From an uncultured bacterium (GTDB taxonomy: Bacteria; Patescibacteriota; Minisyncoccia; Phycocordibacterales; UBA9973), in the NCBI GenBank assembly GCA_903929735.1, contig CAIYVW010000037.1, forward strand, positions 1-45,699: a stretch of DNA of 45,699 bases. The letters run 5' to 3'. How positions within the stretch are numbered: position 1 is the stretch's first letter; each line of letters starts with the position of its first letter. Positions 10,093-45,699 of this stretch are shown piece after piece. The notes beneath the pieces were generated by a model that did no database searches, was not told where the DNA came from, and saw only the letters and a program-made list of their open reading frames with translations. The position numbers were made by a program, and so were the translations under genes.

Positions 10093-10166
10093 GCAGTCGT
10101 AGCTCAATTGGTTAGAGCACCCGCCTGTCACGTGGGAGGTTGAGGGTTCAAATCCCTTCGACTGCG
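10093..10166 (+). tRNA. tRNA-Asp(GTC); integration target
   Basis: GCAGTCG/CGACTGC acceptor, CCCGC-CTGTCAC-GTGGG anticodon arm, TTCAAAT T-loop, G73. Confidence 0.95.
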
Positions 10167-11777
10167 CAGTATTGGACAAAGCACCCCTAAACGGGTGTTT
10201 TGTTCTTTTGTAGCAAAGGTTTTTTCCAGTTCCAACCGATTTATTTCACTTTCTACAGCTTTTCGCTTTTTCTCTATTGGTTCTAGCCAATCGTTTGGTA
10301 AAATAAAGAGTTTTTGGTCTTTTACTATATAGTTCCAACCAAGTGCAGTAAATATACTTTTCTTATCTTCTATTGTAGTTTCAGGGTCTTCAAACTTGAT
10401 TTTTGCTACTTGTGCAAAGTTGAATACTTGTTCGGTGTATTGTAACCAGTTCAATGCTCGGCTTTCAGTTTCATTGATTTTCTGCTTTAAGATTGCAATT
10501 TTTTCAATCAGTTCATTTTTTCTTGAAGCATACTGCTCATCATTTATTAGATCACGCATACGCATTGTTATTAAGTTATCTAGCTCTCTTTGAGATACCT
10601 CAATATCGCCTAATTGTGTTTTATAAATTAGCTCCCTTTCTCGGACTTCATCTGAGTGTTCTTCTGCAAGTATTCTTAATGCCCAATCTCTAAACTTTTC
10701 AGAAATCGTATATTTGTCTATTTCTTCCTTTATCATATCTTCCATATTTTTCAATGGAATAAAAGCTCTTTGGGAACAATTTTCTGTTCCTTTCTTTCGG
10801 TGTGAACAATAATAAAATGTGTAATCTTTTAATTCGTTTTTAGTTTTTATCAATTTAGTTTTTGTACAAGCTGTAACAGAACTTCCACATTCGCCACATA
10901 TCATTGTGCCAGTGTATGTGAATATATGACTCTTAGCTCTAGGTTTTCCATATCTCCCTAATAATTTTTGAACCATATCAAACTCATCCATTGTAATCAT
11001 TGGTTCGTGTTTACCATTTCCAACTTCTCCATTGTAAATAAAAAGACCAGTATAAAATATATTTGTTAAGATATTATACATAGTACTTTTATTTATTTTT
11101 CCACCTCCACGATGCCGTGTCGTTCGTGTTCTCATACCCCAATCATCACTCATTATTTTTAAGAGCTTAGGAATTGTATATTCTCCAGTTAGCATCATAT
11201 TCCACGCTTTCTTAATAAGTTCAAATCGTTCAGGGTCTTTGATTATGTAATTTTCACCACGAACTTCGTGTTTAGTATTTAAGTATCCGAGAGGAGCCAA
11301 TACTGGAGCTAATCCCTTAATAATTTTTTTATCAATTCCACTCTTTACTGCTTTCGCTAAATCTTTACTAAACTGACTAGACATTCCACTCTCTACACTG
11401 ATGATAATTGCATTGTCAGACGGTAAGTATTCTTTTTCCTTGGTCTGTATTGACTGTACTTTTCCGTCAGCAAGTAATTGTTGTAATATTCCACTCTCAA
11501 GAGGATTACGGGAGAGACGATTTAGATGCCAACAAATAATTCCATTTGCTTCACCCTTTTCTATTCTACGGATCATCTCACTAAATGCGGGTCTATTATT
11601 TGGTAGTTTGGCAGACCGACTCTCAGAGAAACTATCAATAACTTCTAAATCATATCTTGTGATAGTTTTTCTATTTTCTTCGTGTTGTCTGTCTATTGAT
11701 TGCACTTGTCTATCTTCTCCTTCAGAAGATTTACGTGCATATTCAAAGTATTTAATTTTTGATGTTTGTTTTGTCAT
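10128..11777 (-). CDS. Large serine recombinase (integrase)
   Basis: YARKSSE catalytic Ser, RPAF, RLSRN, recombinase domain (APLGY, HEPMIT), Zn ribbon CGECG...YYCS, coiled coil; last 13 codons antisense to tRNA-Asp. Confidence 0.95.
   Translation of the reverse strand: MTKQTSKIKYFEYARKSSEGEDRQVQSIDRQHEENRKTITRYDLEVIDSFSESRSAKLPNNRPAFSEMIRRIEKGEANGIICWHLNRLSRNPLESGILQQLLADGKVQSIQTKEKEYLPSDNAIIISVESGMSSQFSKDLAKAVKSGIDKKIIKGLAPVLAPLGYLNTKHEVRGENYIIKDPERFELIKKAWNMMLTGEYTIPKLLKIMSDDWGMRTRTTRHRGGGKINKSTMYNILTNIFYTGLFIYNGEVGNGKHEPMITMDEFDMVQKLLGRYGKPRAKSHIFTYTGTMICGECGSSVTACTKTKLIKTKNELKDYTFYYCSHRKKGTENCSQRAFIPLKNMEDMIKEEIDKYTISEKFRDWALRILAEEHSDEVRERELIYKTQLGDIEVSQRELDNLITMRMRDLINDEQYASRKNELIEKIAILKQKINETESRALNWLQYTEQVFNFAQVAKIKFEDPETTIEDKKSIFTALGWNYIVKDQKLFILPNDWLEPIEKKRKAVESEINRLELEKTFATKEQNTRLGVLCPILRSRRDLNPQPPT
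10178..10210 (+). terminator. Element-supplied terminator-like hairpin behind tRNA-Asp
   Basis: AAAGCACCC-CTAAAC-GGGTGTTTT followed by a T-rich tract. Confidence 0.5.
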
Positions 11778-11780
11778 ATA

Positions 11781-11917
11781 CCATAAAAGGACGGTTCTGG
11801 TTGACCCAATATACTTACCAAGAGGCAGTTTTACTGGCAGAACCGCCCTTTTATGGACAGTAAGACATATAAAATGCCTCTGGCAAAAATCGTATATGGG
11901 TCAACACTTACATTATA
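11781..11917 (-). promoter_or_regulatory. Structured 5' leader of the integrase with a -10 box
   Basis: TATAAT at 11917-11912; stems 11800-11836 / 11858-11905; loop 11838-11856 complementary (18/19 plus G-U) to 11781-11799. Confidence 0.6.
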
Positions 11918-13136
11918 TACCTTTTTCCAAAGAAGTTAAGTTTATAAACTCAAAGTTTTCAAGTGCATTGTTTACGAAAGATATGCAATTTGAGTAAGGC
12001 AATCCTTGTATAAGTTCTGATGCTAATTCAATCTTTTTATTTAATCTTTCTGGGTGATTTGTATCCCATATATCAAAGATTGCTCCTCGTACTTCTTTTG
12101 CTCCGTGATCTTTTATTGCAATAGCCAGACCATAAGAGATAAGAGCTTTATTCAAGGTATGAGATTTCTCATCTAATTTTTGTGCTTCAGCTAGTATGTG
12201 CAAAAGAAGTGTTAATTTGTCAGTGATAGCAAAAAGAGACAGTTGGTTTTCTGGTCTATTGATAATAGTGTGCCAAGAATTGATAACAAGCGACTTCATT
12301 AAATTAGGAGTAAACAAATCCTTAAAAAGAAGTTGTGTCTCATATTCTCTTCCTAGAAGTGGGTTTATATATTTTCTTGCCGTTTGGTTTTTCTTTATAC
12401 GGTATTCGTATCTGAATATCTCTTTATTTTCAAGATTATGAGAAATAATAAATTGTCTTTCATAATCAATATGCTCTTTGTCGGTACGTTTATTTTTTGG
12501 TCTAAGCGAGTCAGAAACTTTGTCATAGATAGACCAATCTGTTGTTCCTGCATATATATTTAGAACTCGTGAACCTTTCTTGTTTTGTTTGTCTGATATA
12601 TCAAATACCTTGCTAATATCTATTTTGCCAAGTTCGTTTATTATTTCCCTCATTTTGATATTTTTGGGAAGTAATATGTTTTTACAAGCGTGTACGGCTA
12701 CAACTTGGGCTTTTGAGATAACTTCTGTTTCTATTGTTATTCCTACACTTTGTAATGCCGACCTAAGAGCAGAGAATACTCTTTGTTGATCTGTATTGCT
12801 TACTTCTTGAACACTATTCCAATAAAGTAATTTTGGAATAGATAGTTCAATTTTAAGAATATGTTGTATGTCTTTCCTGTCTTTTGTTAATGTTTCAAAA
12901 AGTTCAACCCGTGGCAAGTACTCTTCTTGAAACTTGGGTCTTAATACAAATCTTTTAAGATAAGGGTGTCTAGAGGTACGTTCTGTTTGAGACAACTCTT
13001 CATAAGTTCGTCTTGTTATTTCTGGTAAAAACAAAGAAAAGTTTGAAATCTTAAAAGTACGTGGGCTGTATATTTTTATAATAACTGTGTCCATAGTAAT
13101 TTTTATGTTGTCGGTGGATTTCAAGGAACCCTGCAC
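11913..13136 (-). CDS. Putative rolling-circle replication initiator (phage/plasmid gpII/X- or Rep_trans-like); probable start ATG 13094 (MDTV)
   Basis: MDTV start, ELSIPKLL.WNS..EV, IYDK and FRYEYR motifs recalled from this family; sits in the element core. Confidence 0.6.
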   Translation of the reverse strand: MQGSLKSTDNIKITMDTVIIKIYSPRTFKISNFSLFLPEITRRTYEELSQTERTSRHPYLKRFVLRPKFQEEYLPRVELFETLTKDRKDIQHILKIELSIPKLLYWNSVQEVSNTDQQRVFSALRSALQSVGITIETEVISKAQVVAVHACKNILLPKNIKMREIINELGKIDISKVFDISDKQNKKGSRVLNIYAGTTDWSIYDKVSDSLRPKNKRTDKEHIDYERQFIISHNLENKEIFRYEYRIKKNQTARKYINPLLGREYETQLLFKDLFTPNLMKSLVINSWHTIINRPENQLSLFAITDKLTLLLHILAEAQKLDEKSHTLNKALISYGLAIAIKDHGAKEVRGAIFDIWDTNHPERLNKKIELASELIQGLPYSNCISFVNNALENFEFINLTSLEKGI

Positions 13137-13712: not shown

Positions 13713-15239
13713 TTATTGTGAAAAATCACCGTCTATATCTTCTTCCACAGGTGCTGTCATTTCAGAAAATACTTCTTCAGAGTCAGAATACCTATTTTGT
13801 GGTTTTTCTTTTTTGTCAGCATTGTACCTTATGTTGAACTTTGCTTTATATACACCGCCTATGTCTGTTTCAAATGGGTCTGTTTCGTTTTGAAATATCT
13901 TACGTAAAATGTCCGTGATTTTTTGTTTTTGTTTCTTCTTACTTTCGCGTTCTTTTTTTGTGACAGGAAGCGTCTGACCATTACCCCTAGCTAGTTTTAA
14001 TAGAAAAGCCCAATTTTCATCAGCTTTCCCATTTCTACCATCTTCACACCCCATCCCCTCAAAAGAAGACGGTTTTGTGCTTTTGCTGTCTGATAAAAGT
14101 ATATTGGTTTCATCGAGGAATGTTATTGAAACTTTTACCCATTCCGTTCTAGGAAACTGTTGTAGAGTGACCTTTTTTCCACTGCTTTTTTTAATGATGT
14201 TTTCTTCAACATTCTTTATATTTATATTGATGTCTTTCTCTTGGATGTTATTTTCAAAACGATGGGTATGCTCGTGCTTAATTGTTTGCTCTTTGTCTTC
14301 CCCAAAAATATGATTAAAATCTTCCTTGTATTTTGGTGCTTCCTTTTTGTAAAAGTTATTAGTTCTTTGTATCTGAAGTTTATTTAGTTTCTCTATTTCA
14401 CCAGAGATTGCTTCAAGAAAGAAAGCATTTGCCACATCTGTTTTATGTATTTCTGAATTATTTTCAAATAAATCTTTATCTGCTATTTCTTCTCTTAATT
14501 CGATGATTTGTGGCACAATAAAATCTTCCCAAACACCATCAAAAAACTCAGGACAGATATACAAACTGGTTATTGGTTCAATAAGTGTCTGATATGCCTT
14601 GTTGTTCTTAATTTCCAAAAATGTATCGTCGGAATTAACAATTTTTATTAACTTATTTCTAAGTATTTTGAAATAATCATTTAATTCGTCTATTCCAGAA
14701 GTGGGAAAGTAAATACCCGAACCATAATACGCTACCAGTATTGCTTCATAGTAAGAATAATAAACTTTTACTAAGTATATTTTTTCATTAACCGATAAAT
14801 CGTCTATTTTAGACAGATTGAAGTTTTTTATAAGTTCAGCTTTTGTTTTTAATTTGTCGATACCTGATTGTTGGTTAAAATCAAAACCACTCAAGAATAA
14901 TAATTTTGAACCTATTTCATTTGCTTTTTTAATAAGTTCTTTTTCTGAAGCTGTTATTTCTTTTTCGTGTAAAATTGCGCTGTCCTCAATATATTTAGTT
15001 AGATTTGTTATTATTACACCCACTAGTGCATCCTCTTCAGCTTTCCATATTCCACGTAATCTATTTGCCTTTGATCTACTGGAAAAATCAAAATCATACT
15101 TTGTGTCATAGATGTTTATCTTGAACTCATCTTGAAAGAACTGCTCCATTGTTCGGTCACTAAAATCAAGGACATATCCACCTTGCATCCCAAACAGTTT
15201 TTCCAGTATTGCTTTGTCGGTTCCTTTAATTTGGCTCAT
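13713..15239 (-). CDS. AbiJ N-terminal-domain-like protein fused to an uncharacterised C-terminal domain
   Basis: LEKLFGMQGGYVLDFSDRT...SKANRLRGIW is the AbiJ_NTD3-type signature; no HEPN RxxxxH seen. Confidence 0.65.
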   Translation of the reverse strand: MSQIKGTDKAILEKLFGMQGGYVLDFSDRTMEQFFQDEFKINIYDTKYDFDFSSRSKANRLRGIWKAEEDALVGVIITNLTKYIEDSAILHEKEITASEKELIKKANEIGSKLLFLSGFDFNQQSGIDKLKTKAELIKNFNLSKIDDLSVNEKIYLVKVYYSYYEAILVAYYGSGIYFPTSGIDELNDYFKILRNKLIKIVNSDDTFLEIKNNKAYQTLIEPITSLYICPEFFDGVWEDFIVPQIIELREEIADKDLFENNSEIHKTDVANAFFLEAISGEIEKLNKLQIQRTNNFYKKEAPKYKEDFNHIFGEDKEQTIKHEHTHRFENNIQEKDININIKNVEENIIKKSSGKKVTLQQFPRTEWVKVSITFLDETNILLSDSKSTKPSSFEGMGCEDGRNGKADENWAFLLKLARGNGQTLPVTKKERESKKKQKQKITDILRKIFQNETDPFETDIGGVYKAKFNIRYNADKKEKPQNRYSDSEEVFSEMTAPVEEDIDGDFSQ

Positions 15240-15306
15240 AGTAATTGTAATTTATCCTTAAACAATTTGATTTTACCATATTTTACTATGAAGATTAAGC
15301 ATTTTT

Positions 15307-15454
15307 TGTTATACTGGATGTGCGCATAAGTCAGTTTTCAATCAAGGTTTATTTACCTTGGTTACCAATCGTGTTCAGCATAGGCACTCTATGTGGGATA
15401 CAGGATTGGTAACCTTTTGGCTACTGACTTGTGCGCACCCACTGGAGTGCCTAT
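15307..15454 (+). promoter_or_regulatory. Extended -10 promoter and structured 5' leader of the mod-res operon
   Basis: TGTTATACT 15307-15315; stems 15320-15335 / 15423-15438 and 15360-15370 / 15404-15414; loop 15380-15397 complementary to 15438-15454. Confidence 0.6.
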
Positions 15455-15491
15455 TTTGCGTTTCAGTGGAAGACATCTGTATTAGCGCACT

Positions 15492-17201
15492 ATGTCTCAA
15501 CAAAATAAATTACAATTACACGAAAAAGAGCTTCTTGCTCGTATTTCAGAACTTGAGTTAGAAATTAAAAAACTTAAGGATAGAAAATATGGACTTATTT
15601 GGGAAGATAAACCAGAAGAGGTTGTTTTGCAATGCAAAGCCAATATCCCTATTTTAAGAGAAGTTAAGAATAGAAAAATTGTTTCTGATAATTTAACACC
15701 AAACAATCTTTTGATTGAGGGTGACAATTATCACTCTCTTTCTGTTTTGAACTATACTCACAGGAAAAGTGTTGACCTTGTATATATTGATCCACCTTAT
15801 AACACAGGAGCTAAAAACTGGAGGTACAACAATGATTATGTTGATGGAGATGATGATTGGAGACATAGTAAATGGGTATCTTATATGAATAGAAGATTGC
15901 TCTTAGCAAAGAATGTACTAAAAGACAAAGGTGTTCTTGTCTGTGCTATTGATGAAAACGAACACGCCAATCTTGGATTACTTATACATCAGATTTTTAC
16001 GAATTACACGATTGACTGCGTTACAGTAGTTCATAATCCTAGAGGTGTTCAGGGTAAAAACTTTTCGTATAATCACGAGTATATCTATTTTGCCTATCCA
16101 AATGATGGAGGAAAATATATTCTAGATGCTGAAAGAGAAGAGACACTTGAAAGAAACTTTAGAGTTGACGGTAGTAACTCGCCAAGATCAACCTCAAAGA
16201 CAATGTTTTTCCCAATTATTATAGAAGATAAAAAGATTGTTGGTTTTGGTGATGTTGCTGATGTGAATTATCACCCAAAGCAACAAACTGAACATAGAAA
16301 GAATGGGCAGATTTACGTATGGCCAATAGATATAAACGGTATTGAAAGAAAGTGGTCTTTTTCTAGAAATAGTATAGAAGAAATTAAAGACCAGTTAATT
16401 TTCAAGAACAGAAAAGATAGATACGAAATCTATAGGCAAAAAGATGCTTCCCCCTATAGAACAGTGTGGATCAATTCTAAATATGATGCTAATGAATATG
16501 GCTCAAAATTAGTTAATTCTATTATTGATACAAACTTTCCTTTTCCCAAATCAATTTATAATGTTCTAGAGTGTGTATCAGCTACTGTTGGGAATAATAA
16601 AACTGCAACAGTTTTAGATTTTTTTGCTGGTTCAGGAACTACAGGTCACGCTGTCCTAGAACTGAATAAGCAAGATGGTGGTAATCGTAAGTTTATTCTT
16701 TGTACAAATAATGAAAATAATATATGTGAAGAAGTTACTTATGAACGTATTAAAAGAGTTATAAAAGGATATAAAAATAAGAAAGGTGAAAAAATTGAAG
16801 GTCTTGGTGGTAATTTATCATATTACAAAACCGATTTAGTGAACATAGAAAAAATACACAAGATTTCAGATGAAGAAAAAATTAAGGTTACTTATCAAGC
16901 TGGTGAAATGATAGCAGTAAGAGAAGATACCTTAAATGAAATAGAAAAAAATGAATGGTGGCAGATTTTTGAAGGAAATAATAATATCACTGCTATTTAT
17001 TTCAAAGAAGATAAAGAGAAAATTAAAGAACTGATAAAAAAACTTATTTCTAAATTTGAGAATGATAAAACTTCCGTAACTCTTTATATTTTCGGTTGGG
17101 GTAAAAATGAATACAAAAATGAATATAGTTCAGGCCTAGTTCGTGTCGAGGACATTCCTGAACCTATACTGGAAGTTTATAAAGAAATAAATCGTTTATA
17201 A
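15492..17201 (+). CDS. mod: Type III R-M methyltransferase subunit Mod (beta-class amino-MTase)
   Basis: NLLIEGDN, YIDPPYNTG, HSKWVSYM, FPFPK, LDFFAGSGTTGHAV. Confidence 0.93.
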   Translation: MSQQNKLQLHEKELLARISELELEIKKLKDRKYGLIWEDKPEEVVLQCKANIPILREVKNRKIVSDNLTPNNLLIEGDNYHSLSVLNYTHRKSVDLVYIDPPYNTGAKNWRYNNDYVDGDDDWRHSKWVSYMNRRLLLAKNVLKDKGVLVCAIDENEHANLGLLIHQIFTNYTIDCVTVVHNPRGVQGKNFSYNHEYIYFAYPNDGGKYILDAEREETLERNFRVDGSNSPRSTSKTMFFPIIIEDKKIVGFGDVADVNYHPKQQTEHRKNGQIYVWPIDINGIERKWSFSRNSIEEIKDQLIFKNRKDRYEIYRQKDASPYRTVWINSKYDANEYGSKLVNSIIDTNFPFPKSIYNVLECVSATVGNNKTATVLDFFAGSGTTGHAVLELNKQDGGNRKFILCTNNENNICEEVTYERIKRVIKGYKNKKGEKIEGLGGNLSYYKTDLVNIEKIHKISDEEKIKVTYQAGEMIAVREDTLNEIEKNEWWQIFEGNNNITAIYFKEDKEKIKELIKKLISKFENDKTSVTLYIFGWGKNEYKNEYSSGLVRVEDIPEPILEVYKEINRL

Positions 17202-17204
17202 TTT

Positions 17205-19502
17205 ATGCTTATACTTAAACCATTTCAAGAAACAGCAATATCTCAGCTTAAAGACAAGTTTTTAACTTTATGGAAACTTGGTGATACAAATGTTAATTTA
17301 ACTTTCAAATCTCCAACTGGTTCGGGAAAAACAATAATGATGGCTCAATTCTTGAGAGATATTGTTTCTGACCCACGATTTGCAAGTGCAGATGTCGGTT
17401 TTATTTGGATTACAAACTCTGACTCTCTCGCAATGCAATCAAAAGATAAACTTTTTACGTATTACGGAGGAGCTAGCGAAAATCCACTTATTGATCTGAA
17501 CAATCTACGAGATGGTGTTATTCCTAAGAACGGGGTTTTCTTTATAAACTGGCAGAAACTTGTATCAAAATCAAAAGATAATCGTAAACTTCGCACTGAG
17601 GGTGAGTCAAATACCACCTTTGATATGTATCTAGAAAATACACATATACTTAAACGTGATGTTGTATTGATTATTGATGAAGAGCATATTGCTTCCGATA
17701 CAGTTCTTGCTAGTGATTTAATTAAGAATGTTATTAAGCCAAGAATTATAATTGGTGTTTCAGCTACCCCTCAAACAAAAGGTATTACTGTAGATGTTGA
17801 CCGTAAGGATGTTGTACGAGAGGGTTTAATAAAAGAAAAAATTGTATTTCAAACAGCTGAAGATTTAGAAAATAAAGAATATAAAAATATGGATCAGGAT
17901 GATGTTCTTCTTACTTTAGCTTTTGAGAAAAGAAACGAGCTTGTTGAATACTATAAAAAACTTAAGATTGATATTAACCCACTTGTTTTAATACAACTTC
18001 CAAATGACGATAAAGCAAGAAAAGATACTGCTAATATGACCAAGCAAGATTTGGTTATAAACTTTCTTAAGTCAAAAGGAATACTCACTCACGAAATAGC
18101 CGTCTGGCTTTCAGACGATAAGGTAAATCTTGCAGACGTAGAAGCAAGTAATTCACCAGTATCATTTTTACTTTTCAAACAAGCAGTAGCTACAGGATGG
18201 GATTGTCCACGAGCAAGTATCTTGGTGATGTTCCGTGAGATTAAAAATCCTACATTTGCTATCCAAACATCAGGTCGTATTTTACGTATGCCACTTGGAG
18301 TACATTTTTCAGTACCAGAACTTAATCTCGGTTATTTATACACAAACTATAAACGAAATGAAGTACTTGTTGGTTATGCAAAATCTGCTGACCAAAATAG
18401 ACCAGCAATAAATGGAAGTTACAGGAAAACGGCTGTAGAACCAATTGTTCTTGACTCAGTGTTTATGAGCCGTACTGACTATAACGATTTAGGTGATAGC
18501 TTCCAAGAAACTTTCAAAAAGGTAGCAAATAATTATTTTGGTATTTTAGAAAAAGATACAAAAGCAAATGTTATAAAAAAGTTCAATGATAAAAAACTTT
18601 CTTTAGACAAAAAAGTTACAAATGGCCTTATTGTTGATGTTGAGATTGATGACTATGATAATTTCAAGCAGGAACTTCTTTCTGAGGGAAGTAGTTATGA
18701 GCAAGAAATGTCACAGCATGATTTAGAGAGATTATATAATCTTTTCTGTTTTAATATCATATCTAAACAAATTGATGAGGATAAAAAGTTTGCTCCAGAG
18801 CGTTCTTGGGGTAAATTAAAAACCGCCTTAAATGTGTGGCTTCTTGGTCTCCTTAAAGAACAGCGATTACAAATCTATCACATTATTGTAAATGATTTCT
18901 TAAAAGTGAACAGTGTTTTGAGTAGCGTAATTGGTAAAGCATTATCTACATACAGACCAATTCGTGAGCAAGAAATAAATCATAAATCTCAAAGATCCAA
19001 ACGAACTGAGCAAATTGAAATACCAAGACCATCCCTTTTCTATACTGACCAATATGAAGAAATGAAAGTAAAGAAAAGTGCAATGCAACCATTCTTTATA
19101 GAAAAAGATTATACAGGCAAGAAAAATGAGACAAACTTTATTAAATCATTAGAAGAAAATGATAGTGTTCTCTGGTGGTATAAAAATGGTGATTTGGGTA
19201 GTGAGTTTTTCTCTATTCCATATTATGATCCAACAACCAACAAAGAAAGTTTGTTTTATCCTGACTGGGTTATAAGAAATGAAAAAGGTGTTTACATAAT
19301 AGATACAAAAGGTGGTGATACAGCAAAGGGGGCAAAAGAACGTGCTGAAGCGCTCCAAGCGTGGATAAAAAGCAAGAAAGGTTATTATGGAGGTATCGCT
19401 GTCCAAGATGGCTCAAATGGCTGGAAAATCAACGATAGTGCTAAATACGAGTATACTACTGCTCTTAAGGGATGGAAAGATTTAGAAGATTTTTTGAATT
19501 GA
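17205..19502 (+). CDS. res: Type III R-M restriction subunit Res (SF2 helicase plus PD-(D/E)xK nuclease)
   Basis: SPTGSGKT, DEEH, SATP, GWDCPRA, QTSGRILR, FYPDW...DTKG; starts 4 nt after the mod stop. Confidence 0.92.
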   Translation: MLILKPFQETAISQLKDKFLTLWKLGDTNVNLTFKSPTGSGKTIMMAQFLRDIVSDPRFASADVGFIWITNSDSLAMQSKDKLFTYYGGASENPLIDLNNLRDGVIPKNGVFFINWQKLVSKSKDNRKLRTEGESNTTFDMYLENTHILKRDVVLIIDEEHIASDTVLASDLIKNVIKPRIIIGVSATPQTKGITVDVDRKDVVREGLIKEKIVFQTAEDLENKEYKNMDQDDVLLTLAFEKRNELVEYYKKLKIDINPLVLIQLPNDDKARKDTANMTKQDLVINFLKSKGILTHEIAVWLSDDKVNLADVEASNSPVSFLLFKQAVATGWDCPRASILVMFREIKNPTFAIQTSGRILRMPLGVHFSVPELNLGYLYTNYKRNEVLVGYAKSADQNRPAINGSYRKTAVEPIVLDSVFMSRTDYNDLGDSFQETFKKVANNYFGILEKDTKANVIKKFNDKKLSLDKKVTNGLIVDVEIDDYDNFKQELLSEGSSYEQEMSQHDLERLYNLFCFNIISKQIDEDKKFAPERSWGKLKTALNVWLLGLLKEQRLQIYHIIVNDFLKVNSVLSSVIGKALSTYRPIREQEINHKSQRSKRTEQIEIPRPSLFYTDQYEEMKVKKSAMQPFFIEKDYTGKKNETNFIKSLEENDSVLWWYKNGDLGSEFFSIPYYDPTTNKESLFYPDWVIRNEKGVYIIDTKGGDTAKGAKERAEALQAWIKSKKGYYGGIAVQDGSNGWKINDSAKYEYTTALKGWKDLEDFLN

Positions 19503-19512
19503 TTATAAAGAA

Positions 19513-20538
19513 TTATTTTTTATTCATATATTTTGTTGATATTTCGTTAGTTATCTTTCTTGCATTACCGTGACTTAAAAGTCCTAAGTATGACTGAACT
19601 GTATCTATCTTGCCCTCTTTTAGTTTAATACGTTTCCACATTCTACGTTTAGTTACTGTTCTAATTACACGATGATTTGGAAAATGTACCCATCCAAGAA
19701 AATCAATTCCAGAAACCAGTGTGTTTATAGATACTTTGTTATGGTGAAGTGATAACTTAAGCTGTTCTTTAAGAAAATTAGATATTTGAGGAAGTATGTT
19801 TTTTTCAATCCATTCTTTGTTTTCAGACATAACAATAAAATCGTCTGCGTAACGAATATAGTATTTTATTTTTAGTTTGTGTTTAATAAATTGATCAAAC
19901 TCATTCATATAGATGTTTACAAGCAATTGTGAGGTGAGATTACCAAGAGGTAATCCGACATCTTCTTTGGTTGAATGAAAACTTTTAATTATTTCTGACA
20001 AAAGTGAGGTAACGTCGTCATCTCTAATATATTTTTTAATAATTTCAATAAGGATATTCTGGTCAATGGAAGCAAAAAACTTTCTTATATCACCCTTCAA
20101 AACCCACACTGTCCTTGTATTATTCTTTGATACTTTGTTAGAGAAAGTCCTAAATCTTTGTATCGCCTTATGTGTTCCTTTATTTTTTCTACAAGAATAT
20201 GAGTCAGAAGTAAAAGTCCTATCAAAAAATGGATAGAGTACACGATAGATAGCGTGGTGAAGTAATCTGTCTCGTACTTTTGCTTTATGTATACTTCGTG
20301 GCTTTGGGTCAGAAATGTTGAAGGCGTAATAATCAGAATGCTTATATGTTTTATTTAAGAGTTCATTGTGTAGGTCTATTATATTATCCATTAAGTTTCG
20401 TTCAAAATCTAAAACATCCTTCCTTAATTTTTTGTCTATTGAAAACTCTTTCCAAGCAAATAGAAGATTATTAAGAGAAATGATATGTTTATATGTATGA
20501 ATAAATTGAATACGAATCATATTAAAAATAGTGTTCAA
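19513..20538 (-). CDS. DGR reverse transcriptase (start TTG 20538 or ATG 20520)
   Basis: PKPRSI, RDRLLHHA, SYSCRKNKGTH, GDIRKFF, GLPLGNLTSQ, YIRYADDF, GIDFLG; ~340 aa with no maturase or endonuclease domain; adjacent TR/VR pair. Confidence 0.95.
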   Translation of the reverse strand: MNTIFNMIRIQFIHTYKHIISLNNLLFAWKEFSIDKKLRKDVLDFERNLMDNIIDLHNELLNKTYKHSDYYAFNISDPKPRSIHKAKVRDRLLHHAIYRVLYPFFDRTFTSDSYSCRKNKGTHKAIQRFRTFSNKVSKNNTRTVWVLKGDIRKFFASIDQNILIEIIKKYIRDDDVTSLLSEIIKSFHSTKEDVGLPLGNLTSQLLVNIYMNEFDQFIKHKLKIKYYIRYADDFIVMSENKEWIEKNILPQISNFLKEQLKLSLHHNKVSINTLVSGIDFLGWVHFPNHRVIRTVTKRRMWKRIKLKEGKIDTVQSYLGLLSHGNARKITNEISTKYMNKK

Positions 20539-20901
20539 ACTCCAACACTTTTGCCAGTACTACATAAACTAAAAACTGTGTATCTTCTATGGTATAGCTA
20601 TTATCAGATTTTACCCAAAGAACATCGTTATTCTCTTGGAATAAAAATAGATAGCTTGTTTGTAGAAATAATGGAAGCCATCTCTTTGGCTGGATTTCTT
20701 ACTAAAGGAGAAAAACAACCTTACGTAAGATTATCAATCAGAAAGGTTGATACTTTGAAAATCTTACTGATGATTTTATGGGAGACAAAATCTATTGATA
20801 ATAAAAAGTACATTGCACTTTCTGTCCCCTTAGATGAGGTAGGAAGAATGCTTGGTGGTTGGAATGGACAGCTTACAAAACAAAACTCTCCCATCACATA
20901 G
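20485..20901 (+). CDS. avd: DGR accessory variability determinant Avd (four-helix bundle); start uncertain
   Basis: LPKEHRYSLGIKID...LDEVGRMLGGW motifs; basic protein of ~130 aa lying between RT and TR. Confidence 0.88.
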   Translation: MFICMNKLNTNHIKNSVQTPTLLPVLHKLKTVYLLWYSYYQILPKEHRYSLGIKIDSLFVEIMEAISLAGFLTKGEKQPYVRLSIRKVDTLKILLMILWETKSIDNKKYIALSVPLDEVGRMLGGWNGQLTKQNSPIT

Positions 20902-20910
20902 AAAGGAGAG
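20886..20910 (-). other. Hairpin in the TR 3' spacer, antisense to the avd stop
   Basis: Minus strand CTCTCC...GGAGAG followed by TTTTGTTTT. Confidence 0.5.
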
Positions 20911-20922
20911 AAATGAAAAGAT

Positions 20923-21048
20923 TTGCGAGAACAGCAGACGGGTTATTAGCGTTCCAATCATTCTCAAGCCAATTGTAGTTCCAGTTCCACTTACCATCGT
21001 TCCAGTACAAGTACAGGACGTAACGGTTACCGTTAGAGTTCCGAAGAA
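20923..21048 (-). repeat. DGR template repeat (TR), 126 bp
   Basis: Ungapped match to 21407-21532; rich in AAC/AAT codons; all 19 mismatches fall at minus-strand adenines. Confidence 0.97.
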
Positions 21049-21051
21049 ACA

Positions 21052-21269
21052 TATAGAGTATCATCTATTCCACCACCTCTTGAATACTCTCAAGGTTGTA
21101 TATTACTCGTGATAATAATCACTCAATACTCTATACCAAGTATCTTCATTTTTTTGAAGTTTCTGCATACATCACTCTACTTGAAACCTTAATCTCAAGT
21201 ATTCTGAATGTATGGATACTGGTTTCGGTAGCGGAAAATCGTAATCGTCCGCATATTCACCTACTACCG
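21052..21269 (-). ncRNA. Structured 5' region of the putative DGR template RNA
   Basis: Nested helices, e.g. 21052-61/21126-35 (10 bp), 21166-72/21208-14, 21178-84/21195-201, 21226-31/21264-69; extended -10 TGTTAAACT just upstream. Confidence 0.6.
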
Positions 21270-21294
21270 TATTTAGTTTAACACAAAAAAATAA

Positions 21295-21316
21295 CCCCTG
21301 TATAAAAATACAGGGG
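21295..21316 (-). terminator. Perfect hairpin after the DGR target (terminator and/or homing cruciform)
   Basis: CCCCTGTAT-TTTT-ATACAGGGG followed by TTATTTTTT on the minus strand. Confidence 0.65.
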
Positions 21317-21371
21317 CGGAGGATAAAGTACCTCCAATTTTTTTTCGCGAAATGCACAAAGGACAAAGGGT

Positions 21372-22031
21372 CTAAGAAACCAAAGTTTCAGAAACCAGAG
21401 TGCTACTTGCGAGAACAGCAGACGGGCCATCAGCGAACCAATCACGCCCAAGCCAATAGTAGTTCCAGTCCCACTCACCACCGTCCCAGCACAAGTACAG
21501 GACGTAACGGCGACCGCCAGAGTCCCGAAGAACAGTTCCATCAAAGAAAATAAAAGTTGTATTCCCGTTTGTTTTTTCTTTCCATTTTTCAGGAATGAGG
21601 ATTTGGTTTTCCCAAAGTGTTTTGAAAATACCAGCATCCAAACGAATACGATTTGTTTTTTCTTTGAGACGTTTGAGTTTGTCTTCACCTTTAATGATTT
21701 TCTCTCCTTTTTCCAAGGTTGAGTCAAACATAACCTCAGTTAGGTCAATTTCGGTGAGAGCAATTGCTCTTTCGTCTTGTTCTTCAATAGACCATCCGTC
21801 ACCAATAAAGGTTTTGGGATCAAACAGGATAGAGCGGTCAATGCTGATTACCCTTGGGCTATCAACTATAACTTTTCCACCATTTTTAAGGAATGCAGTA
21901 AATTGTTTACCTGCTTCCGTAGGGTCATCTACAATCTTTTGTAAAATTGTGTGTTCCAAGACATCCCAATTAACATTGGTTGCAAGGATTTGGATAACCG
22001 TGTGAGACTGACCAATAGATGGCTTACTCAT
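21372..22031 (-). CDS. DGR target protein with C-terminal variable region (219 aa from ATG 22031; ORF track start 22061)
   Basis: VR encodes LRDSGGRRYVLYLCWDGGEWDWNYYWLGRDWFADGPSAVLA; SD AAGGAGGT 5 nt before ATG 22031. Confidence 0.92.
   Translation of the reverse strand: MSKPSIGQSHTVIQILATNVNWDVLEHTILQKIVDDPTEAGKQFTAFLKNGGKVIVDSPRVISIDRSILFDPKTFIGDGWSIEEQDERAIALTEIDLTEVMFDSTLEKGEKIIKGEDKLKRLKEKTNRIRLDAGIFKTLWENQILIPEKWKEKTNGNTTFIFFDGTVLRDSGGRRYVLYLCWDGGEWDWNYYWLGRDWFADGPSAVLASSTLVSETLVS
21407..21532 (-). repeat. DGR variable repeat (VR)
   Basis: 107/126 identical to TR; minus-strand changes A>G x14, A>T x3, A>C x2. Confidence 0.97.
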
Positions 22032-22075
22032 AATTACCTCCTTTTTTAATAAGAACAACATCGTTCTTGGTTTAT

Positions 22076-45512: not shown

Positions 45513-45599
45513 GGAGGCGTGGATGAGTGGTTTAAATCAACAGTTTACTAAACTGTCGAACCTTTACCGGTTCCGTGAGTTCGAATCTCACCGCCTCCG
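45513..45599 (+). tRNA. tRNA-Ser(ACT), rare A34 anticodon
   Basis: GGAGGCG/CGCCTCC acceptor, ACAGT-TTACTAA-ACTGT anticodon arm, long variable arm, TTCGAAT T-loop, G73. Confidence 0.88.
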
Positions 45600-45699
45600 C
45601 ATAACAAGATTTTTATCGCACAAAAGGTCAAATTCCTTTTGTTTATCAATAGTTTTCAGAGGTTCTAACCGTTTACTAATTGCGTTTACCTCTTTTGAA

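Follow-up and report, generated by a model that had tools for sequence, protein, structure and literature searches.

A conserved folded leader RNA ahead of a type III restriction-modification operon on an island of a Patescibacteria genome

The mod-res locus and its leader

The stretch of DNA analysed here, called the window below, is contig CAIYVW010000037.1 (C37) in its full length of 45,699 nt. It comes from an uncultured bacterium of the Patescibacteriota (Minisyncoccia; Phycocordibacterales; UBA9973; assembly GCA_903929735.1), the genome of which counts 763 kb in 52 contigs. The window holds an island with the gene order tRNA-Asp, large serine recombinase (the integrase), three proteins of no known function, type III mod-res and a diversity-generating retroelement (DGR). 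The mod and res genes encode the two subunits of a type III restriction-modification (RM) system, and the subject of this report is the RNA leader in front of them. An original prediction, made from the sequence alone, had placed there an extended -10 promoter, a stem at the expected transcript start, an inner stem and a loop complementary to the sequence 3' of the outer stem. It had also likened this leader to that of the integrase, and had proposed that the two represent a recurrent, possibly undescribed class of RNA that gates potentially harmful genes.

The mod-res mRNA has as its 5' leader a folded RNA of about 135 nt within an untranslated region of about 170 nt. Four nucleotides separate the extended -10 from the first stem, P1, at 15320 (Table 1), and the transcript should start at or within the first bases of P1. 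The extended -10 is not listed by the consensus promoter scan, which requires a -35 box. On the plus strand, bases 15320-15438 form a three-way-junction hairpin, in which P1 encloses the small hairpin P2 and the inner stem P3. A segment of its apical loop (L) is complementary to the tail of the leader (T); 10 contiguous pairs (15380-89 with 15445-54) are followed by a G-U pair, an A-U pair, a one-base bulge and 4-5 more pairs. All the elements first proposed are thus present in the sequence, and the complementarity does lie immediately 3' of the stem, except that the first C then assigned to the tail (15438) belongs to P1. Three further points go beyond that proposal. T has a second partner downstream, T', and the T:T' hairpin on its own has -14.6 kcal/mol; L pairs with itself in the nested fold (15379-83 with 15389-93, a 5-bp hairpin); and the AUG of mod lies in a small hairpin. 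Directly after T comes a U-rich tract. The distance from this U-tract to the ATG is only 27 nt, and since no promoter is seen in that interval, mod must be transcribed through the leader.

Table 1. Positions of the leader elements, of the genes around them and of the LOOT copies of the source genome. Positions are those of the window unless another contig is named; MFE, minimum free energy.
Feature	Position	Strand	Basis or remark
Extended -10 promoter (TGnTATACT), TGTTATACT	15307-15315	+	sequence
P1	15320-15335 with 15423-15438	+	16 bp, one G-U; MFE fold
P2, small hairpin in three-way junction	15344-15359	+	MFE and centroid folds
P3, inner stem	15360-15370 with 15404-15414	+	MFE fold; extended by 15371-76 with 15396-15401
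L, apical-loop segment complementary to tail	15380-15397	+
T, tail	15439-15454	+	directly after P1, no linker; partners L or T'
U-rich tract	15455-15466	+	8 U in 12, directly after T
T', downstream partner of T	15458-15469	+	local 12-bp hairpin, four G-U pairs; MFE fold
Start-codon hairpin around AUG	15471-76 with 15492-97	+	MFE fold
mod, type III DNA methyltransferase	15492-17201	+	Pfam N6_N4_Mtase 94.5 bits; PADLOC MTase_III 246 bits
res, type III restriction subunit	17205-19502	+	Pfam ResIII 58.9 bits; PADLOC REase_III 57 bits
Integrase leader	11778-11905	-	P1 11905-11892 with 11814-11800; L 11856-11838; T 11799-11781
Large serine recombinase (integrase)	10128-11777	-	Pfam Resolvase, Recombinase, Zn_ribbon_recom
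tRNA-Asp	10093-10167		opens island gene order
DGR reverse transcriptase	19513-20538	-
bAvd-like open reading frame (ORF)	20485-20901	+	opposite strand to reverse transcriptase; 35.9 bits, under Pfam cut-off
DGR template repeat	20923-21048
DGR variable repeat	21407-21532		in 3' end of 229-aa ORF 21372-22061 (-)
LOOT copy in source genome	C25:11751-11868		85 bits; loop-tail sequence differs from other copy
LOOT copy in source genome	C47:4859-4987		84 bits; loop-tail sequence differs from other copy

A folded untranslated region of this length would be unusual for the organism, since the mRNAs of the window seem to be mostly leaderless. Among the 43 ORF starts examined in the window, there are no Shine-Dalgarno sequences, and a TAnAAT-like -10 box ends 6-10 nt before the ATG at 9 or more of them, which suggests that the mRNAs in the window are mostly leaderless or nearly so.

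The MFE fold of 15320-15495 reaches -78.4 kcal/mol on the plus strand (z -8.59; none of 200 shuffles as good), against -60.0 kcal/mol (z -5.65) for the minus-strand fold of the leader. The L:T duplex has -27.1 kcal/mol and is matched by none of 2000 tail shuffles. As a genome-wide control, only the random-placement test was used, in which the geometry of L and T was placed at random in the source genome; one of 4000 placements reached -24 kcal/mol. Genome-wide descriptor searches for the topology gave no usable count, since chance matches in A/T-rich sequence and palindromic repeat families dominated their output. At gathering score, Rfam finds only eight tRNAs in the whole window. Permissive scans of the mod-res and integrase leaders gave only matches at chance level, which for the mod-res leader against Rfam 15 (4227 models) were two at E 6.9, so that the Rfam scan proposed at the outset assigned the leader to no family.

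Conservation was examined in the DNA around relatives of Mod, 80 loci on genome contigs and 80 on metagenome contigs. A leader of the window type stands upstream of an orthologous type III mod at five further loci (L009, L010, L121, L028 and L034). The first three are near-identical to one another, and L028 and L034 are diverged, with Mod about 55% identical. A covariance model of this leader built in the present analysis (R1) scores 171.8 bits at the window and 127-174 bits at L009, L010, L028 and L034, these being its training sequences; L121, which is outside the training set, scores 161 bits. Across 151 genomes of the phylum, R1 finds only the genome of the window itself and one marginal match (E 0.015), and a nucleotide search of 60 relatives with the 201-nt leader gave nothing below E 0.1.

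In the alignment of these six sequences, 98.5% of the cells pair and 14 pairs have changed on both sides, and none of 500 shuffles scores as high; when the partners are slid against each other, pairing falls to 30-39%. Changes on both sides affect 7 of the 16 pairs of P1 and 6 of the 11 pairs of P3. L:T shows one double change and three single ones (G-C to G-U); at L009 and L010, a C-to-U change in L retains the pair as G-U. At L028 and L034, the distal part of L:T and T' are swapped as whole matching segments, each locus having its own matching L, T and T'. The start-codon hairpin pairs in 97% of the cells over the six sequences and has no changes on both sides, and P2 is conserved in neither L028 nor L034. 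Like the window, L028 and L034 have a U-tract after T.

Thus, there is good evidence that the window leader is a real, conserved RNA structure of the plus strand. An RNA of this strand, as originally proposed, is favoured by the difference in folding energy between the two strands, by the G-U pairs in the helices and by the C-to-U change kept as G-U; the compensatory changes agree with it. The original prediction had made its case depend on whether the structure is conserved upstream of homologous mod genes; it is kept there, with compensatory changes, and the proposal stands on this point.

Leaders of other kinds in the same position

The promoter block ahead of mod is kept at seven loci (L009, L010, L011, L015, L025, L028 and L034), including those at which another kind of leader follows. 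At three of these (L011, L015 and L025), Mod is 89%, 71% and 62% identical to that of the window, and a stretch of about 75 nt that includes the divergent promoter block is conserved at 77-87% identity. Downstream of it stands a different RNA, which Rfam identifies as LOOT (RF03000), with 62-67 bits. With an extended LOOT model, LOOT was found directly upstream of mod at 6 of the 80 genome loci and 3 of the 80 metagenome loci (L011, L015, L025, L036, L042, L043, L122, L125 and L150). Membership of LOOT was set at 46.4 bits or more with the RF03000 covariance model, and the window leader falls short of it; the model has no match in the window at gathering score, and none in 15250-15560 at E up to 10.

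LOOT comes from a survey of 224 motifs (PMC5737381) and is called a "metagenomic-based RNA" in Rfam 14 (PMC7779021). In the passages of these accounts drawn on here, it is a metagenome-based RNA of six helices to which no function is given (PMC5737381; PMC7779021). The parts of the literature covered held nothing relevant on the function of LOOT, on pseudoknot terminators in leaders of mobile elements or on leaders of RM systems. In Rfam, LOOT is filed as an sRNA gene, under a model that stops short of the tail. The two folds differ: LOOT has four successive hairpins (H1-H4) with GNRA-type loops (GAAA-type on H3 and H4), whereas in the window P1 encloses P2 and P3. Three things are shared. In both, the apical loop of a long hairpin pairs with a tail after the RNA, and a U-tract follows; both occupy the slot behind the same promoter block and before orthologous mod genes; and both occur in Patescibacteria, in many cases within a few kb of a serine recombinase gene.

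The loop-tail feature of LOOT was traced in 33 sequences, in which the apical loop of H2 is complementary to the tail right after the end of the Rfam model. The loop-tail duplex has a mean of -26.6 kcal/mol for cognate pairs against -16.8 kcal/mol for non-cognate ones, and RNAalifold picks this helix unaided. At least six T in a 9-nt window are found in 26 of the 33 tails, compared with 37% of random 31-mers from the A/T-rich source genome. LOOT is present in 30 of the 151 sampled genomes of the phylum, with 1-3 copies each, and the source genome has two. Each of the two has a paralogue of the large serine recombinase gene at a distance of about 3 kb (C25:7227-8801; C47:7-1449). By coordinates, in the subset of copies checked, at least eight lie 3-6 kb from a serine recombinase gene. 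The genes downstream of LOOT are varied and include those for zinc-ribbon proteins, a Dam-type methylase, a TnsA-like nuclease, SNase, lipoproteins and DUF-type proteins. At 5 of 30 loci (L089, L092, L098, L102 and L110), the 5' arm of H2 is repeated exactly over 10-14 nt just before the next start codon. The repeat is also found at the start in six mod-linked LOOTs (L011, L015, L025, L036, L042 and L043), and the 3' arm of H2 could therefore pair with the start region. In two genomes, G096 and G104, co-resident LOOT copies share the loop-tail sequence and differ in the arms of H2.

A second type of mod leader was recognized by eye at six loci (L012, L013, L014, L029, L033 and L066). Its fold is a different one, but it too begins with a stem at the head of the transcript, part of its interior is complementary to the tail, a U-tract and a T' are present, and the start codon lies in a hairpin. 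A crude scan for helices of -20 kcal/mol or better with arms at least 25 nt apart found a long-range helix that ends at a U-tract 28-65 nt before the start at 18 of 83 mod loci. These 83 are what remains of 86 loci (window included; match beginning within the first 33 residues) after removal of three with too little upstream sequence. The scan misses several obvious cases with interrupted U-runs, for example L011 and L012.

The integrase leader, on the minus strand, shares the topology of the mod leader, as had been proposed; its fold has z -6.3, and its L:T duplex, at -32.3 kcal/mol, is equalled by none of 2000 shuffles. Its promoter matches the consensus at 10 of 12 positions, with a -10 (TATAAT) that ends at 11912, and P1 begins at 11905. 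As in the mod leader, the promoter lies directly before P1, the hairpin is long and bent, and its apical loop is complementary to a tail that follows P1 without a linker. In contrast to the mod leader, the tail nearly reaches the ATG, ending 3 nt before it (11777), and only a short U-run is present.

Thirty recombinase loci were fetched, of which 21 include the start and enough upstream sequence. At eight of the 21, window included, a loop-tail duplex of -24 kcal/mol or better lies at the start. One of the eight, L211, was excluded from the family for its different and simpler fold, and three further recombinase loci show the family by eye, with T further upstream. A model built from ten leaders (R3) has no counterpart in Rfam. 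It scores 109 bits at the window leader and matches 10 of the 151 genomes, and all nine matches outside the source genome abut a recombinase gene. L and T covary within this family, for example at L210 and L220. After T the U-run is short (a maximum of 3-6 T per 9-nt window), and T ends 3-30 nt from the ATG. The family is carried on the same kind of element as the mod leader.

Within the window, R3 finds only 11775-11907 on the minus strand and nothing at 15320-15470 at E up to 1, and the models of the mod and integrase leaders show no cross-matches. The two leaders had been called unrelated in sequence. This holds for direct comparison, but a third leader type (for example L033) gives a weak full-length match to both models, 31.0 bits with R1 and 22.8 bits with R3, for which the short calibration makes the E-values rough. 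Short motifs in P1, L and T are also common to the third type and the integrase leader, and a distant common origin of the mod and integrase leaders is possible.

The architecture is indeed recurrent: at least four RNA families (the window-type mod leader, the second mod-leader type, the integrase leader and LOOT) stand at the head of genes on mobile elements of Patescibacteria. The window leader is a new, rare member of this architectural class, and its position is equivalent to that of LOOT. As for its being undescribed, this applies to the window leader itself, which has no Rfam match, but the catalogued LOOT fills the same slot in close relatives with the same loop-tail feature. Since one fold stands in for the other between a shared promoter and a shared gene, the window leader and LOOT would be expected to have equivalent roles.

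A possible two-state switch and the alternatives

A regulatory role of the leader is plausible. The gating of harmful genes, for example during establishment in a new host, stays a conjecture, and the genes behind LOOT are of many kinds. The reading that we favour, and that we hold to be about evenly balanced between right and wrong, is that the mod-res leader acts in cis as a switch between two states, an attenuator. In the nested (ON) state, P1, P2 and P3 would be formed, the loop would be closed on itself and T would be held in the T:T' hairpin; RNA polymerase would already be beyond the U-tract and mod-res would be made. In the knotted (OFF) state, T would pair with L, and the long-range helix would end at the U run and resemble the stem of an intrinsic terminator. 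If this state formed while the polymerase stood on the U-tract, transcription would stop at about 135-145 nt and no mod-res would be made. At that moment T' would not yet have been made, and L would be the sole partner for T. Since T' lies behind the U-tract, it could only lock transcripts that have already been read through; after read-through, T:T' would form and hold T away from L. Furthermore, no linker separates T from the 3' strand of P1, and P1 stands at the 5' end of the transcript, so that L:T could stack on P1 as an extension. In this scheme, termination driven by the helix, the interconversion of the two states and the default state are inferred, and the choice between the states might be made by folding kinetics, a protein, a small molecule or an RNA.

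In calculated energy, the two states appear close. The nested fold of 15320-15500 has -83.2 kcal/mol, and the knotted state has about -87 kcal/mol before any pseudoknot penalty (-52.3 for the domain with L free, -27.8 for L:T and about -7 for the start hairpin). As in an intrinsic terminator, the U-rich tract directly follows the 3' strand of a G+C-rich helix, and a U-tract stands likewise after T in the second mod-leader type and in LOOT. Leaders with a terminator and an antiterminator are well known from the expression platforms of riboswitches and from plasmid rep leaders such as that of pT181, in which attenuation is driven by a countertranscript. The window leader would share with these the mutually exclusive folds of a 5' leader, with one of the folds running into a U-tract ahead of the coding sequence. 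It differs in that the apical loop of a stable hairpin supplies the 5' strand of the terminator-like helix, which makes this a pseudoknot, and in that T' lies downstream of the U-tract. For an antisense promoter of the pT181 type, a crude consensus scan of the minus strand over 15320-15491 found none, and promoters here often lack a -35.

Several points weigh against termination by this route. The U-tract is interrupted (UAUUUUGCGUUU), and a consensus scan for terminators found none in 15240-15500. The helix is not the compact hairpin of a usual terminator, since 41 nt separate the two arms and, as a pseudoknot, it crosses both P1 and P3. Giving up the very stable P1 and P3 in order to force L:T costs 14.5 kcal/mol; a full 16-17-bp L:T inside the loop closed by P3 also seems sterically doubtful unless the upper part of P3 opens. 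When T is withdrawn in silico, the start region refolds in opposite ways in the window and in L028 and L034. In the integrase leaders, the short U-run and the position of T near the ATG fit masking of the start site as well as termination. The covariation comes from three independent lineages only, namely the window group, L028 and L034. In the search for RNA evidence, nine runs hold small shares of the stretch, and four of these runs were examined as contigs. The only one with the exact sequence (X1) gives one 151-nt contig, 15383-15532 with no differences, which spans the U-tract; the library may be DNA, and contigs cannot show ends. Of the others, two runs from one sample (X4 and X5) hold a 90-95% relative whose upstream part is a leader of the LOOT type, and X3 is probably DNA of relatives.

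The closest alternative, which we consider unlikely, is control of translation or of RNA processing. The exchange of L:T for T:T' would then alter access to the start codon, or the long helices would be cut, for example by RNase III, to give an mRNA with a short leader, in an organism in which translation otherwise begins at leaderless or A/U-rich starts. Such control would suit a window without Shine-Dalgarno sequences, where many genes look leaderless, and the AUG does lie within a small hairpin. In L028 and L034, formation of T:T' leaves the start open, and withdrawal of T folds it in. For the window the opposite is predicted, with the AUG paired in the presence of T:T' and free once T is taken away; a uniform translational logic, with the start open in one state and closed in the other, was rejected on account of this opposite behaviour in silico. 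The integrase leaders, with their weak U-run and T 3-30 nt from the ATG, also speak for control at the start codon. So does the repeat of the 5' arm of the main stem at the start codon, which occurs in LOOT (5 of 30 loci, and mod-linked copies) and in the second mod-leader type; in the window leader type this repeat is weak, with 6+3 possible pairs by inspection. The conserved U-tract after T in the mod leaders and LOOT would have no role here.

It is a good deal less probable that the leader works as a riboregulator of the immunity type. In this case, the terminated leader would be a stable small RNA, L of which pairs in trans with T of new transcripts, so that high expression would occur only just after entry into a cell without the RNA. 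Precedents are the structured immunity RNAs of phages P1 and P7 (c4) and P4 (CI), which come from the operon head, have loops complementary to sequence further down the transcript and shut off downstream genes. The window leader likewise is an RNA at the head of a mobile-element operon with a loop complementary to downstream sequence of its own transcript. It differs in having one long loop-tail helix rather than two short loop pairings and has no Rfam match, and its processing and action in trans would be hypothetical. Pairing in trans would fit the display of L in an apical loop of a very stable domain, the distinct L:T sequences of the four such RNAs in the source genome, the clear advantage of cognate over non-cognate pairs and the location of the elements on integrative islands. 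Against it, pairing in cis accounts for the same covariation, and in 3 of 11 genomes with several LOOTs (G076, G096 and G104) there are co-resident copies with the same L:T, so the copies are not kept orthogonal.

Slightly less probable again is a domain that senses a ligand or a protein, riboswitch-like or autoregulated by Mod, of which the loop-tail helix would be the expression platform only. The junction of several helices, the nucleotides around the top of P3 that are conserved across diverged members and the similar energies of the two states all fit this idea, which is compatible with the two-state switch and would supply its trigger. With three lineages, however, conserved unpaired positions are indistinguishable from recent ancestry, and no Rfam family matches. 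Moreover, mod is served by three or four distinct folds, and the genes that follow LOOT are of very different kinds; this argues against a single gene-specific metabolite.

Finally, an element acting at the level of DNA, with the nested inverted repeats as binding sites of a protein or as recombination sites, for example of an invertible promoter segment, is very improbable: a serine recombinase gene is nearby, and a perfect 15-nt inverted repeat (15241-15255 / 15506-15520; one copy just upstream of the ATG of the divergent 508-aa gene, the other in codons 5-10 of mod) brackets the promoter, the leader and the first four codons of mod and is kept at 12-14 nt in L011, L015, L122 and L125, but it is degenerate in L034 (by inspection), none of 15 model-found leaders upstream of mod is inverted (assemblies show the majority form only), the G-U pairs and the strand asymmetry of the folding energy fit RNA, and P1, P3 and L:T would be left unexplained.

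Long-range pairing near the start of mobile-element genes has other precedents. In the repZ (repA) pseudoknot of IncI-alpha and IncB plasmids and in the fold-back of hok mRNA, a hairpin loop pairs with a distant downstream segment near the gene start, or the mRNA of a harmful gene is kept inactive by pairing over a long range, and in this they resemble the window leader. Those systems use short helices (4-8 bp) that activate translation, or depend on 3' processing and an antisense RNA, whereas the helix of the window has 16-20 bp and is followed by a U-tract.

The known control of RM systems is by C proteins, by autoregulation of the methyltransferase and by antisense RNAs, the latter in EcoRI and Eco29kI (PMC3874152). 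In the passages of that review drawn on here, no structured cis-leader of an RM operon is described, and its text as a whole has the word "riboswitch" nowhere and "attenuat" once (PMC3874152). The window leader has in common with these systems that control would be placed at the head of the RM operon. A folded cis-leader before a type III operon would add a further mode of RM control.

If the two-state switch is extended to the whole class, the loop-to-tail modules (LOOT, the integrase leader and at least two mod-leader types) may be interchangeable behind one promoter and before one gene, each building a pseudoknot terminator stacked on a 5'-end stem. They could then be a common switch or timer for newly arrived DNA, acting through an immunity factor made from the leader or through one shared signal of the host or the element. 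We offer this only tentatively and consider it doubtful. If true, the orphan LOOT would acquire a function as part of this toolkit of modules, and the cis-regulatory RNAs would gain a new class. The window already provides LOOT, catalogued since 2017 without a function, with a concrete genomic context and a testable role. Helices between loop and tail that end at a U-tract recur in several unrelated or barely related families, and they do so on integrative elements of ultrasmall bacteria that otherwise seem to have almost no 5' leaders.

Neighbouring genes and minor observations

At the start of the island, the 3' end of the recombinase ORF and the tRNA-Asp gene overlap by about 40 nt on opposite strands. 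A search of the rest of the window for repeats of the tRNA-Asp region, 12 nt or longer, found none, which leaves the far border of the island undefined. Two of the proteins without a known function, encoded on the minus strand by a 508-aa ORF (13713-15239) and a 407-aa ORF (11913-13136), have no match in Pfam, PADLOC or NCBIfam, and the neighbouring 86-aa protein has none in PADLOC or NCBIfam. The start of the 508-aa gene and its promoter region are kept beside mod in L011, L025 and L034.

Downstream of res lies a complete DGR (19513-22061). All 19 differences between its repeats fall at template T on the plus strand, that is, at A on the coding strand. Near the end of the window, a tRNA-Ser gene with the anticodon ACT (45513-45600; ARAGORN; Rfam tRNA, 56 bits) adjoins a tRNA-Ser(GCT) gene on the other strand; A as the first anticodon position is unusual. 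Elsewhere in the source genome, a 19-nt perfect palindrome occurs in many copies on contigs C6, C12 and C36, a G+C-rich 16-nt palindrome is found on C23, and C23 and C32 carry long inverted repeats at the contig ends.

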